A stretch of DNA of 19,487 nucleotides. It comes from a virus. Its lineage: Duplodnaviria > Heunggongvirae > Uroviricota > Caudoviricetes. Of the stretch, positions 1-15,591 are shown one piece after another. Location: IMG/VR virus record IMGVR_UViG_651053023_000006. One strand, given 5' to 3'. The stretch's first letter is position 1; every line of letters begins with the position of its first letter. The translations under genes and the position numbers were made by a program. Below the pieces are notes generated by a model, which did no database searches, was not told the origin of the DNA, and was given only the letters and a program-made list of their open reading frames with translations.

Positions 1-1119
1 TCAAATAACCAACTTAACCCATTCCTGACCTCGAGTATCGTTATAGCGATCGGTGGTTGCCTGGACTTTATGTCCTAGTAATGTTTTTGTATCGATACCC
101 TGTGCACGGTACAGCCGTTCTGATAGAGAGCGTTGTTCATGAAATGTTGGCGGAGTTTTTCCTGCTGGTGGAATTATCCCAGCCAGATCCCGTGCTTTGG
201 CAAAGTAGTCGCTCAGGTTGTCTTTACTCATCGGCTTCGGTTGTTTCTGGTGCCGACTATGGATTAGATATGGACTTAATATTCTGTCTCGGCACCCATC
301 AATAACTTCTTTTAACGTTATCCCAATGGCATCACAGCGTAGTGTAAGCGGTAACGCCAGACGCATTCCGGTTTTTCCCTGGGTGATATGCAAATGTTCG
401 TTCCACACATCTGAAAAACGCATGTGGTAAATGTCATCACGGCGCTGACCAGTAACAATCGCAAGAAGCATTGCGTTACGGATAAAGTGTTTTTCTGGCG
501 TTGCGTTGTAAATTTTTTGCCAGTCTTCCAGGGTGAGTCTGGCTCTGGTTACTTTAGGGATCGGTTTACGGGTGGCCTCCGGAGGATTCCATCCAGGAGG
601 AACTTCCCCTGCATGCTGTGCTTCTTTATAAATATCAACCCATAATCCACGATTTACTCTCGCTGTGCTGACCATGTCTTTATCCAGCCACTCATCCAGT
701 ATTAATGCAAAGTCTCTTACTTCCAGTTCTTTCAATGGGTGGTTTCCCAGACGGGAAACCAGATATGCAGCCATTCTGGCTTTTTCTTTGTGAGTTGTAG
801 CTGCAATATCTCCATTTTTCAGTCGCGTGTCCTGTATTTTCAGATATCGATCAACCCATGCCTTTAATCTGATACCCCGACGCGTTGTTGCTGACGGACT
901 TTCATCAATTTTGCGCATGAAATATTCAGCCTCTGCTGCAGCTATTCGCTGATTGGCTGTGGAAGCGATTTTTTCTGCCTTACCTTTGTCTGTTCCGAGC
1001 CCGTGAAATTTTCCAGTCACAGGGTTTTTATACTGGTAGTAAACTCTGCCAGTTCTGCGATCAAATTTTTCGTAAAGTCCGGCTACGTCAGTGCTGTTTT
1101 TTCGTGGCCTCGGTGACAT
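1..1119 (-). CDS. int: Phage integrase, tyrosine recombinase (lambda Int family)
   Basis: 372-aa ORF with ATG at 1117-1119 and stop at 1-3. The C-terminal region (PPTFHEQRSLSERLY, LLGHK, RYNDTRGQEW) parallels the catalytic region of lambda Int as I remember it. Start overlaps the upstream xis-like ORF, as in lambda. Confidence 0.9.
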   Translation of the reverse strand: MSPRPRKNSTDVAGLYEKFDRRTGRVYYQYKNPVTGKFHGLGTDKGKAEKIASTANQRIAAAEAEYFMRKIDESPSATTRRGIRLKAWVDRYLKIQDTRLKNGDIAATTHKEKARMAAYLVSRLGNHPLKELEVRDFALILDEWLDKDMVSTARVNRGLWVDIYKEAQHAGEVPPGWNPPEATRKPIPKVTRARLTLEDWQKIYNATPEKHFIRNAMLLAIVTGQRRDDIYHMRFSDVWNEHLHITQGKTGMRLALPLTLRCDAIGITLKEVIDGCRDRILSPYLIHSRHQKQPKPMSKDNLSDYFAKARDLAGIIPPAGKTPPTFHEQRSLSERLYRAQGIDTKTLLGHKVQATTDRYNDTRGQEWVKLVI

Positions 1120-8287: not shown

Positions 8288-8595
8288 TTATAACCAATCA
8301 AAAAAACATCCGCAAAGCGATATTGAGCTAGTGCGGAAGCTTCATCAGTGTGGAGTTCCCCGCCGTGATATCGCTGTAAAACGCGAAATGTCCTTGGGCA
8401 TGATTAATCAGTACGTTTATTTCGACAGGAGAGCGCATGAAGTTTGACATCTAGACAACTGGGGGAGCGCTGAAAACGTTCTTAATTGATGTTGGATTCG
8501 CTTTACATACTGAACTGTTTGGCTGAAAGACACGGTAGTATCACCAATCAAGGTGCTTTTGATAAACGCTTGTGTGTTTGTTTTTTAATCCATTG

Positions 8596-8624
8596 TTGAC
8601 AACTAGGTTAGTTTTCCATATCAT
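8596..8624 (+). promoter_or_regulatory. Candidate sigma70 promoter for the ParA-like gene
   Basis: TTGACA (8596-8601), 17-nt spacer, TATCAT (8619-8624), about 30 nt upstream of ATG 8655. Confidence 0.5.
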
Positions 8625-8654
8625 CAATAAAAGTGTAAAACTAATGGTGGCGAT

Positions 8655-9701
8655 ATGACTAGTGAATCAAATGTTAATGCTCTGATAGAGCGTCAATTCG
8701 AAGTTGCTGACGGTAATGTAAGAAGTCTTAATTTGCCGAAATATGATAAATATACAGTATGTAATTTACGGGGAGGCATTGGTAAGACATCTTTAACTTT
8801 TAATCTGTCATATTTGGCGGATAACGCATTAATCGTGGATACGTGCCCGCAAGGAAATTTATCATATTTTTTTGACAATAATTATGCATCTTCGTCTAGC
8901 ACAACTGCAAATGACCTCTTAATGCCTTATTTTGTTCCAGGGCTTGGATTTGCAACGCGTGCTGCAAAGCTAGTATCATCAACTAATGCTTGGTTTGCGG
9001 GCAAGAATAACTATTTTATTCAATCTGATAGTCAACTTTATCTTCTACCTACGCAAATGGCGAATGCTCTGGCTCAAGCCAGAACAATTTCTGGGGCTAC
9101 TCAGCAGGTTGTTATTGATACAATTCTTTTTTCTCTGAAGAAAGAAATAGCCAGAGAAATGGTTGAAACTGGTACTACAAAAGCGTTAATTGATACATCA
9201 CCTTTTTTCTCTGGAGCGACGCATTTATCTTGGCATGCAACAGATGCTTTAATAGTTCCAGTGAGGACAGATCAGCAATCGATTAATTCATTAAGATTAC
9301 TTATTGATACTCTGACTAAACCAACATCAGAATTTAGAAAGATAATGCCGTCTGATGGCCATACACCAAAAATTCAGATGGTGGTTATTACCCATTGCGG
9401 ATGGTCAACAGTGGCAGGAGCAAGGAATAAACCAAATCAACAGACAAAAATGTACATCGAAGCTGTAAGAGAGGTAATTCGACAAAATATTAGTAATTTT
9501 ACAACAGATGATCCTAATAATCACATTGTGATTCTTGATGATTTTCTGGGTAGTGGCAGAATGTCAAGTGCTAAGTCTAAACCATTAGAGTTGTTAAATC
9601 CAGGAGATGCAATGACTGTGAATAGAGTTAGGACATCCGTGAATTTATCTGTTAACAAAATAAAAAATGAATTAAAGTTCATTCACAACTCCATATGGTA
9701 A
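8655..9701 (+). CDS. ParA/MinD-superfamily P-loop ATPase with atypical deviant Walker A (Arg replaces the signature Lys)
   Basis: 348 aa. Motifs: YTVCNLRGGIGKTSLTFNLSYL (deviant Walker A, R for K), LIVDTCPQGNLS (compare ParA LLIDLDPQGN), ALIDTSPFFSG ... DALIVPVRTDQQSINSL (Walker B region). About 30-aa N-terminal and about 60-aa C-terminal extensions. Region is visibly AT-rich. Confidence 0.8.
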   Translation: MTSESNVNALIERQFEVADGNVRSLNLPKYDKYTVCNLRGGIGKTSLTFNLSYLADNALIVDTCPQGNLSYFFDNNYASSSSTTANDLLMPYFVPGLGFATRAAKLVSSTNAWFAGKNNYFIQSDSQLYLLPTQMANALAQARTISGATQQVVIDTILFSLKKEIAREMVETGTTKALIDTSPFFSGATHLSWHATDALIVPVRTDQQSINSLRLLIDTLTKPTSEFRKIMPSDGHTPKIQMVVITHCGWSTVAGARNKPNQQTKMYIEAVREVIRQNISNFTTDDPNNHIVILDDFLGSGRMSSAKSKPLELLNPGDAMTVNRVRTSVNLSVNKIKNELKFIHNSIW

Positions 9702-9858
9702 ATGACATTTTATTTGAATAATCTGGATTGATAATTATTGTTACATTAATTGTTATTAATTCTAAATAATCCTATCGTTCTTCAGGATGAGATAATTTAT
9801 ATTTATTTGTGTTGTGATTTTTTGAATTTATTTAGGTTTATGAACTGTTTTAGATGAA

Positions 9859-9978
9859 ATGAATCATGAATACGAAATTGTTGCGGTACTGATAACGAGG
9901 AAAGACCTCTGCGAGGTACGAATCCGAACCGGCCAGACGGAGGTCGCTGTCTTCACAGCTTACGAACCTGAGGAGTAA
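9859..9978 (+). pseudogene. hok/gef-family type I toxin remnant, 5'-truncated
   Basis: 39-aa frame MNHEYEIVAVLITRKDLCEVRIRTGQTEVAVFTAYEPEE. The C-terminal 28 residues match the conserved Hok/Gef/RelF tail (LTRKxLCEx[RH]xRxGxxEVAxFxAYE). The N-terminal transmembrane helix is missing and no hydrophobic stretch is encoded upstream in any frame. GC-rich hairpins and a terminator follow, as in hok mRNA 3' regions. Confidence 0.6.
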
Positions 9979-10046
9979 GAGACCAGGCGAGGGAGAAATC
10001 CCTCGCCACCTCTGATGTGTCAGGCATCCTCAACGCACCCGCACTT

Positions 10047-10069
10047 AACCCGCTTCGGCGGGTTTTTTA
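10047..10069 (+). terminator. Rho-independent terminator (hok-remnant 3' end)
   Basis: ACCCGC-TTCG-GCGGGT hairpin (10048-10063) followed by T6. A strong GGCGAGGGA-GAAA-TCCCTCGCC hairpin lies upstream at 9986-10007. Confidence 0.7.
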
Positions 10070-10116
10070 TTGGTTGACAAAATTATGAATATGCACCAAT
10101 ATCTTGGTTGACAAAA
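10070..10116 (+). promoter_or_regulatory. Candidate promoter/operator with two direct TTGGTTGACAAAA repeats
   Basis: TTGGTTGACAAAA at 10070-10082 and 10104-10116. Each contains TTGACA. Located between the terminator and the start of the downstream two-gene operon. Confidence 0.4.
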
Positions 10117-10151
10117 GTCGTTTTTTGCACGGATTAGGCGGAGAAGTGTCT

Positions 10152-10745
10152 ATGCAGAACCATCCATTCCCTTGGGAGTTCTTTCCTGAGTTAACAGAGG
10201 AGCGTTTAACCATTATAGCTGAGGAGTTGCTCAGGATACAGGATATTACTCATGAGTTATTGTCATCGCCCTATGATGATAATTACACTCGTGGTGGTTG
10301 TACATTTGGGCGTCAGCGGCAGGCGTTGCTACAAATGTGCGTACGAAAGACATATGACTGGTTAAGACTACTTAATCCTGGCATGGATCTTACGTTTTCA
10401 ATTGGGAATGTCCCTATTCGTTTCTTTACTGATGACGCAGATAACCCCAAGAAACGCGGTTTTTTCAAAAGAAATGATGCTGATCGACTCTTTGAGTCAG
10501 AGGAGACTACTCCAACTATGCATCGCTTTGTGGTTGAAAAGCCTGAATTTGAAGGCGAGGGTGGTAGAGTCATTTTTAATGGCTATAACGTGTTTGGTGA
10601 GATCGTGTCAACTTGGACATATGGTGCGGACCGTGTTGTTATGCTGAACTCTGTCGATGATGTACCTCCAGCACCGGTACCTATCGAACTAGAACCTATC
10701 AGTGCGTCTAAGACTGAGAAGGAAAAGAAACAAAATAGCAAATAG
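10152..10745 (+). CDS. Hypothetical protein (197 aa), first gene of a two-gene operon
   Basis: Track ORF starts at TTG 10104; I prefer ATG 10152 with GGAG about 9 nt upstream. AT-rich codon usage. No family motif recognised. Stop TAG at 10743-10745 is 10 nt before the next start. Confidence 0.65.
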   Translation: MQNHPFPWEFFPELTEERLTIIAEELLRIQDITHELLSSPYDDNYTRGGCTFGRQRQALLQMCVRKTYDWLRLLNPGMDLTFSIGNVPIRFFTDDADNPKKRGFFKRNDADRLFESEETTPTMHRFVVEKPEFEGEGGRVIFNGYNVFGEIVSTWTYGADRVVMLNSVDDVPPAPVPIELEPISASKTEKEKKQNSK

Positions 10746-10755
10746 TGGGTGAAAT

Positions 10756-11877
10756 GTGTTTAACGGTACTAATTTAAGACTTGCTCGTCTGTATCACGAG
10801 CTATCTCTGGAGCAGGTTGCTGAGAAGGTTGAAAAAACACGCCAGTATGTACAGCGACTGGAGTCTGGTTCAGCTACTCCATCCCCAGAGCTTATAAATA
10901 AATTAGCCGAGGTTTTGCGCGTGAAGCCCGCCTTTTTCGAAGGGCAGGAACATTCTCCTGTTAATGAAGAGATTGTACATTTTCGTAAACGCGCCTCGAC
11001 AAGGATGTCAACGAAGCTATCAACACTCGCTAAGGCTGAGTTTTATCGTCGTTTTATTGATGTATTTGAAGATAACCTTAATTTGTCACCTGTTCGATTT
11101 CCTGAATTTCGTGTCCATACACAAGAAGATATCGAGCGAGCGGCAGAAAAATGTCGTATTGAGTGGGGCTTAGGCTTTGGCCCAATTGAAAATATGACTC
11201 GCCTTGCCGAGAAACTTGGGGCGTTTGTTACTTCATTTGACTCCGTTTCGGATGAAGTAGATGCACTGTCTGTTCCTCTACGAAGGCCTTTTATTGTTCG
11301 AAATACAGCTAAAAATTCACCTTGTAGGCAACGCTTTGATATTGCTCATGAGGTTGCCCATTTGATTCTTCATGAAGGAATTTCTACTGGGGATAGATTA
11401 ACTGAATCCCAGGCAAACCGTTTTGCCTCTGCTCTGTTGCTTCCCAGAACGTCGATGGCGAAATATTTTCCAAGACCTGTGGGGGGGAGGATAAATTGGC
11501 AGGGACTAAGCCAATTTAAGTTGACATGGAAAGTAAGTAAGGCTGCCATTGTTTACAGGGCTCATCAATTAGGACTTTTGACTGATGAGCAGTACAGAAC
11601 TGCATTTATGGGGTTGAAACGGAAAGGGGAAGCTATTGATGAAAAAGAAGATTATCTAATCCCTCATGAGCGTCCTGAGTTATTCCGTCGGGCTTTATCG
11701 TTTTTATTTGAAGAGTTAGGATACGACCCACAGCGTATAGCTGATGAAATGGATATAGAAGTGGACATTTTTTATGAGTTAGTAGGAGATGATCTTCCTG
11801 CGGTTCATGAACTGCCAGGAAGTGGTGATGTTGTTTCACTACAATCTTACCGAACTCTTAGAGGCAAAATTCACTAG
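10756..11877 (+). CDS. XRE-family HTH fused to ImmA/IrrE-type zinc metallopeptidase (COG2856-like)
   Basis: GTG start at 10756. N-terminal HTH (LRLARLYHELSLEQVAEKVEKTRQYVQRLESG...ELINKLAEVL). Central HEXXH motif (FDIAHEVAHLILHE) in the arrangement typical of ImmA/IrrE peptidases. 373 aa. Confidence 0.75.
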   Translation: MFNGTNLRLARLYHELSLEQVAEKVEKTRQYVQRLESGSATPSPELINKLAEVLRVKPAFFEGQEHSPVNEEIVHFRKRASTRMSTKLSTLAKAEFYRRFIDVFEDNLNLSPVRFPEFRVHTQEDIERAAEKCRIEWGLGFGPIENMTRLAEKLGAFVTSFDSVSDEVDALSVPLRRPFIVRNTAKNSPCRQRFDIAHEVAHLILHEGISTGDRLTESQANRFASALLLPRTSMAKYFPRPVGGRINWQGLSQFKLTWKVSKAAIVYRAHQLGLLTDEQYRTAFMGLKRKGEAIDEKEDYLIPHERPELFRRALSFLFEELGYDPQRIADEMDIEVDIFYELVGDDLPAVHELPGSGDVVSLQSYRTLRGKIH

Positions 11878-11881
11878 GCAT

Positions 11882-11904
11882 AACCCGCTTCGGCGGGTTT
11901 TTTG
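11882..11904 (+). terminator. Rho-independent terminator, identical hairpin to 10047-10069
   Basis: ACCCGC-TTCG-GCGGGT followed by T6, starting 5 nt after the stop at 11875-11877. Confidence 0.7.
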
Positions 11905-11978
11905 TTTTACGTATTCTGGTTTACAATCTACAGGCTAGCCTGAACAACTGGCACCTGCTGCGCCAGCAGAGAAAACCG

Positions 11979-12251
11979 ATGGCGCACAATACCAAACATC
12001 ACAATTCTGATACCGACCTTGCCAGCTGGCACGGGCGGCGTTCTCATACATTCAAATATGACTGGTACCAGCATGCCCCATGCACTGAAGAACAGGCCGA
12101 ATGGCTGATTCAGAACTACCGCAGGCGTGGGTACGACTTTCAGAAAGACCTCAGCCCTGACTTCCGACACTGGATAATTTCTGTCAGGCTCCCTTATTCC
12201 GAACGCCCACCGCGTCCGTCCCGCACATTCCAGCAACGCATCTGGAGGTAA
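11979..12251 (+). CDS. Hypothetical small protein (Rem-like by position)
   Basis: 90-aa ORF, ATG at 11979. Its stop TAA (12249-12251) sits next to the GGAGG RBS and GTG start of the downstream DUF968 gene. Gene order resembles rem-ydfU-Q in Qin-type prophages. Confidence 0.45.
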   Translation: MAHNTKHHNSDTDLASWHGRRSHTFKYDWYQHAPCTEEQAEWLIQNYRRRGYDFQKDLSPDFRHWIISVRLPYSERPPRPSRTFQQRIWR

Positions 12252-12252
12252 C

Positions 12253-13308
12253 GTGCGGGTATTACTTCGACCTGTTCTGGTGCCGGAACTTGGGGTGGTT
12301 ATCGTTAAGCCAGGTCGTGAATCCATGCAGGTATTCCATAACGGCAGAGTGCTGGTTGAACCGGAGCCAAAAAGCATGCGCGGTCTGCCGTCCGGGGTCG
12401 TTCCTGCCGTTCGCCAGCCGCTGGCGGAAGACAAATCTCTGCTGCCATTTTTCAGCGATGAGCGGGTGATTCGTGCTGCCGGCGGCGCTGGTGCACTGTC
12501 TGACTGGCTCCTGCGTCATGTTAAATCCTGCCAGTGGCCACACGGCGATTATCATCACAGCGAAACCGTTATTCACCGTTATGGTACCGGCGCAATGGTG
12601 TTGTGCTGGCACTGCGACAACCAGCTGCGTGACCAGACATCCGAATCACTCGAGCAACTTGCTCATCAAAACCTGTCAGCATGGATGATTGACGTCATAC
12701 ACCATGCAATGAATGGCACGCAGGAGCGGGAATTATCGCTGGCTGAATTATCTTGGTGGGCAACCATAAATAACGTAGCGGACGCACTACCGGAGACGGT
12801 ATTACGTCGTTCGCTGGGATTGCGCGCGGAAAAAATTCGCTCAGTATACCGCGAGAGCGACATCGTGCCGGGAGAGCAGACCGCCACCAGCATACTGAAG
12901 CAGCGCACAAAAAATCTTGCGCCGCTGCCTCACGCCCACCAGCAAAACCCGCCACAGGAAAAGACAGTGGTCAGCATTGCCGTTGATCCGGAGTCACCGG
13001 CTCAGTATCTCCAGCGCCAGAAACCACAACGGGAAGAGATGCCTGTATACACGCGCTGGGTAAAAACGCAGAAATGCATGACGTGCGGTAATCAGGCAGA
13101 TGATCCGCATCACATCATTGGTCATGGACTGGGAGGGATGGGAACAAAGGCTGACGATTTGTTTGTTATTCCATTGTGCCGTAAATGTCATAACGAACTG
13201 CACACCGGGGTAAAAGATTTTGAAGAAAAACACGGCAGCCAGCTGTTGTTGCTGATTCGTTTTTTAATGCACGCGAGAAATTCGGGTGTCCTGAAGTGGA
13301 AAGCATAA
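12253..13308 (+). CDS. DUF968 (YdfU-like) prophage protein with C-terminal HNH/zinc-finger-like motif
   Basis: 351 aa, GTG start with GGAGG upstream. C-terminal CMTCGN...HHIIGHG...CRKCHNELH cysteine/histidine cluster. Stop TAA is adjacent to the rusA ATG. Confidence 0.65.
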   Translation: MRVLLRPVLVPELGVVIVKPGRESMQVFHNGRVLVEPEPKSMRGLPSGVVPAVRQPLAEDKSLLPFFSDERVIRAAGGAGALSDWLLRHVKSCQWPHGDYHHSETVIHRYGTGAMVLCWHCDNQLRDQTSESLEQLAHQNLSAWMIDVIHHAMNGTQERELSLAELSWWATINNVADALPETVLRRSLGLRAEKIRSVYRESDIVPGEQTATSILKQRTKNLAPLPHAHQQNPPQEKTVVSIAVDPESPAQYLQRQKPQREEMPVYTRWVKTQKCMTCGNQADDPHHIIGHGLGGMGTKADDLFVIPLCRKCHNELHTGVKDFEEKHGSQLLLLIRFLMHARNSGVLKWKA

Positions 13309-14570: not shown

Positions 14571-14646
14571 GGCCCTTTAGCTCAGTGGTGAGAGCGAGCG
14601 ACTCATAATCGCTTGGTCGTTGGTTCAAACCCAACAGGGGCCACCA
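14571..14646 (+). tRNA. tRNA with CAU anticodon, Ile2 (lysidine) type by similarity to ileX; tRNA-Met not formally excluded
   Basis: 76 nt including CCA. Acceptor stem GGCCCTT/AGGGGCC. Anticodon stem AGCGA/TCGCT with loop CTCATAA (U33, CAT, A37). T arm GTTGG-TTCAAAC-CCAAC. Closely resembles E. coli tRNA-Ile2 as I remember it. Confidence 0.9.
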
Positions 14647-14745: not shown

Positions 14746-15591
14746 TCAGATGGCTGATAGTTGCCCCGGATAATGCTTCGCAATGATGTCATTTAGCCGA
14801 TCAACCAGTTCCGGTTTTCTGAACGTGATGTGCGCGGAGCCCTTCTTAAAGTATCTGATGCTGAACATCTCATCTTCATAGCTCTCTTTACCCTGAACAG
14901 ACTGAATGTGATCATCCAGACGAATAGTGATGTTTTCCCGGTTGTCGGGGATCGGTTTGCCGCTGAACAGATGCAGCATTCTTTCCAGGTCGGCAAGTCG
15001 ATCGGCCTGTTGCCCGGTGATAAGATGAAACCCCCACCGGTCCCACCTCACCAGGTTGTTGACGATAATTTTACTGCTAAATTTGCAGGGGCAATTGGTT
15101 TTGTAATTCCAGCTCAGCCCTCTGAAGACGTTGATCACCCCTCGCTCAAACACCTCATCCTTATTCTGGTGCAGTTGTTCAAATGTGCTCAGAATGTTCG
15201 CTTCACTGATTTCCGGAAAATTATCGTACTCCAGTGACCGGTACCATGTATCACGGGCCTGCGCATCCATTAATGACAGCATCCCGGAACGTTGCATCAG
15301 ATCACGCCAGAGTTCGCGATCAAGATTGTGTGTGATGGCTTTCATTGCCGTTTCAGGTTTCTCCATGAGCCAGCAGCCACAGCGAAAATCCTGTTTCATC
15401 GCCCAGCCCAGTGCGGTTTTACCGCCAATACTTTCTGTCATTGCTGAGATTTCAGCCAGTTGCCGGATAAGTGTGTCGATTTGCAGCAGTGAACTCTTTC
15501 GTACAGCCAGAATGTGGCGGATACTGGTTGAGCAGATAACGTCCGTATGCCCGTTGACAACTTCCGGACGGGAGGCTGTGATATCAGACAT
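14746..15591 (-). CDS. Conserved hypothetical protein, distal gene of a CP4-type island
   Basis: 281-aa ORF, ATG at 15589-15591 with AGGA upstream. Context: downstream of a cbtA/cbeA-type module. Confidence 0.6.
   Translation of the reverse strand: MSDITASRPEVVNGHTDVICSTSIRHILAVRKSSLLQIDTLIRQLAEISAMTESIGGKTALGWAMKQDFRCGCWLMEKPETAMKAITHNLDRELWRDLMQRSGMLSLMDAQARDTWYRSLEYDNFPEISEANILSTFEQLHQNKDEVFERGVINVFRGLSWNYKTNCPCKFSSKIIVNNLVRWDRWGFHLITGQQADRLADLERMLHLFSGKPIPDNRENITIRLDDHIQSVQGKESYEDEMFSIRYFKKGSAHITFRKPELVDRLNDIIAKHYPGQLSAI

Follow-up and report, generated by a model that had tools for sequence, protein, structure and literature searches.

Morons, reportedly introduced in 2000 by Juhala and co-workers and by Hendrix and co-workers, are autonomous promoter-gene-terminator units lying between genes that are adjacent in related phages, and classical morons are thought to have arrived by illegitimate recombination. 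The locus analysed here, carried by a 19,487-nt stretch of viral DNA (IMG/VR record IMGVR_UViG_651053023_000006; the window, at its full length), compares closely with such units. A two-gene RosmerTA toxin-antitoxin cassette (rmrT and rmrA) lies between two identical 23-nt terminator-like repeats, the first placed after a remnant of a hok gene and the second after rmrA. As in morons, the cargo is located between hok and a block comprising a 90-aa open reading frame (ORF90) and a DUF968 gene, which are adjacent in EDL933 and CREC-2, and it possesses its own terminator, a conserved upstream TTGACA-containing region and a GC content below that of its flanks. Unlike in classical morons, however, the neighbouring unit and other cargos use the same terminator as this cargo, and every breakpoint coincides with it. 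It is fairly probable that the two 23-mers are the intrinsic terminators of successive self-contained units, and that the shared terminator serves as a crossover site for cassette exchange.

The closest described analogues come from T4-type phages, namely the PeSL (promoter-early stem-loop) cassettes (Arbiol et al. 2010, PMC2839356). The repeated elements there, conserved over ~100 bp, pair a strong early promoter with the stem-loop, and mini-circles have been demonstrated physically. In both cases, repeated stem-loop terminators surround variable accessory ORFs, a single element is found at the empty site (in the sister genome for PeSL), and recombination of one element with another has been proposed for module insertion and deletion (PMC2839356). 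The present locus differs in that the shared element is a 20-26 bp terminator instead of a ~100-bp promoter and stem-loop, in that it belongs to a lambdoid prophage, and in that the case is built on comparative anatomy only. A second precedent is offered by exchanges of lambda with the defective prophages Qin, Rac and DLP12, in which phage Rad52-like recombinases act on homologies that are short or diverged (De Paepe et al. 2014, PMC3945230). Mosaic joints of lambdoid prophages at short or diverged homologies are common to that relaxed recombination and to the present locus, but the homologies described there span hundreds of bp, compared to ~20-26 bp here (De Paepe et al. 2014, PMC3945230). 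The RosmerTA cargo and the general phenomenon (morons, prophage defence hotspots) were already known; what the shared-terminator joint adds is a neat and new example of modules being shuffled through a regulatory element.

The 23-mer TAACCCGCTTCGGCGGGTTTTTT occurs twice on the plus strand of the window, at 10046-10068 (copy 1) and 11881-11903 (copy 2). This exact match, with a hairpin and T-run at each copy and two genes in between, had been described in the sequence-only reading of this DNA and was recovered unchanged. No further match was found in the 19.5-kb window, even with 3 mismatches allowed, and two matches were obtained in none of 200 dinucleotide-preserving shuffles. The repeat can be extended to 26 nt with 25 of 26 positions identical (10046-10071 and 11881-11906; spacing of 1835 bp), and the flanks of the two copies differ immediately on both sides, only the 20-26 nt of terminator being held in common. 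Both copies were called intrinsic-terminator-like, with stems at 10047-10064 and 11882-11899 (7 pairs each, A/T extension included), a TTCG loop and a following T-run, and their predicted folding energies were -11.8 and -13.5 kcal/mol, respectively. They belong to a hairpin class with CCCGC-UUCG-GCGGG between an A-run and a U-run. An Rfam scan of the whole window detected no hok/sok or other RNA family at the repeats, its sole match being a tRNA (14571-14643). Copy 1 is the hok terminator (hok-T); the same sequence was located after hok in 94 loci examined, with the 20-mer core exact in 92 of them. Copy 2, whose hairpin and T-run start 3 nt past the rmrA stop codon, forms the right end of the cargo and would be the crossover site.

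On sequence grounds, the cargo between the repeats is identified as a RosmerTA toxin-antitoxin/defence operon composed of rmrT and rmrA. RosmerTA has been described as a defence/toxin-antitoxin system that protects against phage and in which a Zn-peptidase antitoxin neutralises its partner toxin, a protein of unknown function (Millman et al. 2022, bioRxiv 10.1101/2022.05.11.491447). The toxin gene rmrT (10152-10745, plus strand; 197 aa) matched the PADLOC RmrT model over residues 1-197 of 197 (PDLC03929; E 5.5e-93), and no Pfam family was found for RmrT. The antitoxin gene rmrA (10756-11877; 373 aa), located 10 nt downstream on the same strand, matched the PADLOC RmrA model (PDLC03943; E 4.3e-201) and encodes an HTH domain (HTH_3; E 1.5e-12) and an ImmA/IrrE M78 zinc peptidase (Peptidase_M78; E 8.4e-17). 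The cassette thus shares with the described system the two-gene operon, the order of an unknown-fold toxin followed by an HTH and Zn-peptidase antitoxin, and full-length PADLOC matches (Millman et al. 2022); no difference was found in gene content. Its GC content is 42-46% (10050-11850), compared to 50-57% from 11850 onward.

The left end of the cargo is a 5' regulatory region (10070-10135, plus strand), the presumed promoter/operator, with two tandem boxes GGTTGACAAAA-N9-10-TGCAC (~10072-10096 and ~10106-10130). Both boxes were kept upstream of rmrT in most RmrA-linked relatives, the sequence to their left being different in every context. These TTGACA-containing boxes are probably the promoter and RmrA operator sites, although a consensus promoter scan called no site at the boxes upstream of rmrT. 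The box pair has a 34-bp period, and its conservation in most relatives extends from Enterobacterales to Pseudomonas-level divergence. The cargo was present in 22 of 5,426 complete E. coli genomes (identity of at least 99.6%), and was located between hok and DUF968 in all five genomic loci inspected. As a distant-sensitivity search for the cargo in the GenBank phage collection gave no match, the comparison material consisted of prophages and IMG/VR contigs, not isolated phages.

If cassettes recombine terminator by terminator, one terminator is to be expected at empty sites, and downstream blocks should be joined exactly at the T-run. The hokD-type terminator loci of the 5,426 complete E. coli genomes number about 10,000. 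Thousands of other prophages possess hok and DUF968 without the cargo, and in those compared (EDL933, the locus L027 and others) a single terminator was found, with left and right flanks as in the window. In EDL933, it lies where the 3' end of hok meets the small ORF's CTGGTTTACAAT leader. In CREC-2, an exact empty counterpart of the site, the 3' end of hok is followed by one TAACCCGCTTCGGCGGGTTTTTT and then by GTTTTACGTATTCTGGTTTACAAT, the right-hand allele of the window. Overall, hok-T was followed directly by the ORF90/DUF968 block in 15 loci, including EDL933, L027 and CREC-2, and an artificial empty-site query gave a contiguous single-piece match in many genomes. The block that follows hok-T directly in these sites (the A block; 11904-12251 in the window, plus strand) comprises the leader with CTGGTTTACAAT and the 90-aa ORF (11979-12251). 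The sequence-only reading had anticipated that cargo-less prophages would have one terminator, placed between hok and the gene downstream, as was found in EDL933, L027 and CREC-2, and its proposal that the module was acquired by recombination at a terminator fits these single-terminator sites.

A perfect 23-bp direct repeat around a 1812-bp insert, with one copy at empty sites, could also be expected if the insertion itself had duplicated the hok terminator, either as a target-site duplication or as the att-like footprint of a transposition or site-specific integration. The origin of copy 2 was followed in RmrA relatives (70-88% identity), gathered by taking one genome per species together with IMG/VR contigs. 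DNA homology of the relatives to the window starts at 10070-10073, 1-4 bases past copy 1, and no terminator-like hairpin was found left of the boxes in any of them. In the closest relative (L212), homology runs to 11900, through copy 2. L212 is another kind of lambdoid phage, with replication O, a DnaC-like gene and DUF1367, and its locus contains a single terminator-like hairpin. More generally, the relatives from Klebsiella, Yersinia, Enterobacter and other phages, with no hok nearby, possess a CCCGC-TTCG-GCGGG hairpin right after rmrA with compensatory changes: AACCCGCTTCGGCGGGTTTA in L212, ATCCCGCTTCGGCGGGAT in many relatives, ATCCCGCTTCGGCGGGATTTTTT in L214, L217, L220 and L223, CTCCCGCTTCGGCGGGATTTT in a Yersinia relative, ATCCCGCTTTGGCGGGATTTT in a Klebsiella oxytoca relative, and AACCCACTTCGGTGGGTTTTTTT in L224, where CCCAC...GTGGG is a compensatory change.

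Since hok-less relatives carry the same covarying hairpin after rmrA, these alignments identify copy 2 as a terminator that belongs to the RosmerTA cassette itself and was inherited along with it. The earlier proposal that the second copy is a footprint or duplicate of the hok terminator does not stand against this hairpin, whereas the claim that the repeats define the cargo boundaries was borne out, the RosmerTA homology elsewhere spanning ~10070 to ~11900. Duplication on insertion is further at odds with the gene content of the cargo, which encodes only RmrT and RmrA and no transposase or integrase, the prophage integrase (1-1119, minus strand) being located at the prophage end. The repeat length is also not constant, ranging from ~13 nt in L004, whose left copy is truncated in the stem, to 22-26 nt elsewhere. 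Duplication by the insertion is therefore judged highly improbable, and a true target-site duplication is essentially excluded. Hairpin-targeting mobile elements (IS200/IS605-like elements, group II introns, integron attC sites) were considered separately and rejected, as the cargo has no recombinase, the extent of the repeat is variable and copy 2 is native. Just downstream of the rmrA terminator, many non-E. coli relatives (L132, L133, L214, L216-L220, L223, L227, L230) possess a conserved element with repeated TGCACAA motifs (e.g. CTGCACAATAGTGCACAAATTTGCACAATTTTTTTGATGC), which suggests that those cassettes share another mobile-element hotspot.

The terminator sequence belongs to a generic and very common class. 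The exact 20-mer AACCCGCTTCGGCGGGTTTT was matched in at least 120 IMG/VR stretches and, among 122 occurrences in the IMG/VR matches listed, 32 were located after hok and 90 after the stop codons of unrelated genes, in diverse phages. With a 30-nt probe, 41,288 near-matches were obtained (median of 8 per E. coli genome), and 5,425 of the 5,426 genomes contained at least one. Of the two observations named in the sequence-only reading as speaking against an insertion footprint, a generic repeat is indeed what these counts show, while cargo-less prophages carry one copy rather than both. Copy 2 would accordingly resemble the hok terminator through membership in the same generic class.

Such an abundance favours the main rival explanation, in which the terminators are convergent and have no recombination role: joining would be random and illegitimate, survivors would be those keeping their promoters and terminators intact, and breakpoints would accumulate at the ends of terminators. 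This corresponds to how Hendrix and Juhala viewed morons. Besides the 8 near-copies per E. coli genome and the 90 of 122 viral-contig occurrences unrelated to hok, it gains from a left junction without detectable homology and from some slot occupants that have no second terminator copy. The form of the junctions speaks against it: empty sites are seamless, and at least 11 different partners diverge within a few T residues after GCGGG, not at variable distances. In addition, five or six unrelated hok-adjacent cargos all use this one terminator, present in ~8 copies per genome, where several hundred or more intrinsic terminators are expected per genome. Taken together, random joining with selection is considered unlikely.

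The sequence-only reading had suggested that the 23-mer be searched for at other cargos, and at least five other cargos lying directly after hok-T did end in the same terminator: a divergent RosmerTA, a Phd-Doc pair, an HTH and ImmA module, a lipoprotein gene, and RelE/HTH stacked behind Phd-Doc. The divergent RosmerTA (L019, L030, L119) was recognised at the protein level (RmrT, E 4.6e-25; RmrA, E 6e-105), its coding region having no DNA similarity to that of the window. Its terminator-to-terminator spacing is also exactly 1835 bp (L019, 2815-4670; also L030 and L119), with overlapping genes of 216 and 368 aa. The Phd-Doc pair (Fic/DOC domain) followed hok-T in L116, L107 and more than 40 further loci. 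The L086 cargo comprises an HTH gene, an ImmA-like peptidase and a small Zn-ribbon ORF, and that of L004 a lipoprotein gene with the left terminator copy truncated within its stem. The repeat was shortest in L004 (~13 nt), longer in L116 and L086 (22-23 nt) and reached 23-26 nt in the window. No arrays of three or more terminators, as in stacked cassettes, were found in any of the fetched loci.

On the right-hand side, hok-T was followed by four different resident blocks or by one of five cargos, and the terminator of the Doc cassette (Doc-T) by six different blocks; all blocks and cargos after hok-T and Doc-T diverge within the T-run. Identical A-block alleles follow hok-T, Doc-T and the RosmerTA terminator Rmr1-T. 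The right-hand allele of Rmr1-T is either TTGTTTTACGTATTCTGG or GTTTTTTCTGAGCATCCTGG, the switch lying inside the terminator, and both alleles occur directly after hok-T in empty sites. The left junction of the window cassette, GGGTTTTTT-A-TTGGTTGAC (T6-A), was by comparison invariant. As it was identical in 17 of 17 loci, a single founding event is likely for this junction, and that event may have been illegitimate.

A terminator that joins the same cassette to several neighbours could also act through PeSL-like mini-circles. Recombination between two terminators would excise the cassette with one terminator as a circle, which a single crossover would re-integrate at any resident copy. A single crossover between such a circle and hok-T gives the order terminator-cassette-terminator with seamless flanks, the same Doc cassette and terminator are found ahead of six different blocks, terminator-type hairpins follow Doc relatives in hok-less phages, and a precedent exists in T4-type phages (PMC2839356). 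This mechanism is nevertheless thought improbable: every Rmr1 copy has the 3' end of hok on its left, so that ordinary flanking homology suffices for their spread, RosmerTA relatives elsewhere have no upstream terminator copy, and circles are purely hypothetical in this lambdoid system. The broader proposal that AACCCGCTTCGGCGGGTTTT is a portable recombination site, with phage single-strand-annealing recombinases re-integrating terminator-bearing RosmerTA, Phd-Doc and HTH-ImmA circles at any resident copy, whether in the hok slot of lambdoid prophages or in enterobacterial phages unrelated to them, is quite doubtful. If true, it would provide a lambdoid counterpart of the PeSL mini-circles and a concrete case of the 'linker sequence' model of phage modular evolution. 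In the Doc relatives of hok-less phages (73-76% identity; L293, L298, L300-L305, L308-L313), the exact AACCCGCTTCGGCGGGTTTT or loop variants of it were observed ~45 nt after doc, and in L311 (1832 and 2990) a similar hairpin is also located upstream of the pair.

Under the favoured explanation, exchange at the shared terminator, an accessory slot of the nin region would hold head-to-tail autonomous cassettes (morons) sharing one generic terminator, the first unit in the window being the 5'-truncated hokD locus and the second the RosmerTA operon. The 20-26 bp of terminator identity would provide the crossover site at which whole cassettes are added, deleted or swapped, putatively by phage Rad52-type recombinases or RecA. 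Sequence comparison shows the anatomy, the cassette limits, the empty sites, the native cassette terminator, how generic its sequence is, and junctions in many combinations; these junctions would have been made by homologous recombination within the terminator, rather than by illegitimate recombination and selection, and we likewise infer the direction of the events (gain versus loss).

Several points weigh against this explanation. A stretch of 20-26 identical bp is about the least that permits efficient homologous recombination, and no Red/RecT-type recombinase gene was identified among the window ORFs tested. As no relative has a left flank homologous to the left junction, at least one event appears not to have been terminator-to-terminator. 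Some slot occupants have no second terminator, namely rem in Qin, a 330-bp insert in L005 and an opposite-strand RelE/HTH in L003. The surveyed loci were fetched via terminator, RmrA and Doc searches, and the counts given above are biased accordingly. Finally, no near-isogenic prophage with the ParA-truncated hok, the terminator and ORF90 but without the cargo was found covering at least 80% of the artificial query, the empty sites being all of the intact-hok type.

Whether module boundaries arise by recombination at short 'linkers' or by random illegitimate joining and selection is an old question in phage evolution, for which this locus makes a clean test case: one 20-26 bp terminator stands between a set of cargos (hok, two RosmerTA variants, Phd-Doc and others) and no fewer than seven different blocks downstream, and exact empty sites can be compared with it. 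The hok terminator also marks an accessory slot in E. coli lambdoid prophages in which defence and toxin-antitoxin cassettes can be sought.

Concerning its wider context, the window is a lambdoid prophage (lambda-like, E. coli). Its gene order comprises the integrase, an exonuclease-like gene, a YdaS-type regulator, replication genes, DUF1627, DUF977, a ParA-like gene and the hok remnant, followed by the first terminator, rmrT-rmrA, the second terminator, the 90-aa ORF, DUF968, RusA and Q. The hokD-type 3' remnant (9877-10045, plus strand) consists of the last codons, to 9978, and the hok mRNA 3' region, as indicated by the alignment to intact hokD loci, which begins at ~9877-9884, and by the RefSeq annotation of the identical locus L001, where window positions 9877-9978 are named 'Hok/Gef family protein, incomplete, missing N-terminus'. 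The upstream copy thus does follow a hok gene, as the sequence-only reading had it, in the form of a remnant lacking its N-terminus. The ParA-like ATPase gene (8655-9701, plus strand, with an AT-rich tail to ~9876; Pfam AAA_31/CbiA) is annotated by RefSeq as 'ParA family protein' in the identical loci L001 and L010, and lies in a region (8400-9900) of 27-38% GC. Together with its AT-rich tail (8400-9880), it replaces the hok promoter region and the first ~30 codons. Because the 5' half of hok, including the promoter region, is replaced, hok is a pseudogene in the window, with its terminator kept; the ParA-like gene is a neighbouring cargo, outside the bracketed module, whose arrival removed that half. 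The same ParA-truncated arrangement was observed in strains Z1324SEC0014 and ETEC4090, other cassette carriers possessing an intact hokD. In the viral contig L203 (~420-520), only ~70 nt of hok remain left of RosmerTA, so the hok 3' end and terminator seem to travel with the cassette even where hok is nearly gone.

On the right side of the slot, the 90-aa ORF is 71% identical to the unnamed ORF that precedes ydfU in Qin. Comparison with K-12 Rem showed no similarity, and the earlier description of the downstream gene as rem-like was not upheld. The conserved right neighbour is a ydfU-like DUF968 gene (12253-13308, plus strand; Pfam DUF968, E 1.1e-63), which in strain Z1324SEC0014 (L001, 11497-13678) is split by an IS903B insertion beside the cassette. 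Further downstream, the tRNA gene (14571-14643; Rfam, 71 bits) lies just after the Q antiterminator gene and is followed on the opposite strand by a DUF4942 gene (14746-15591), a region that looks like another accessory slot.

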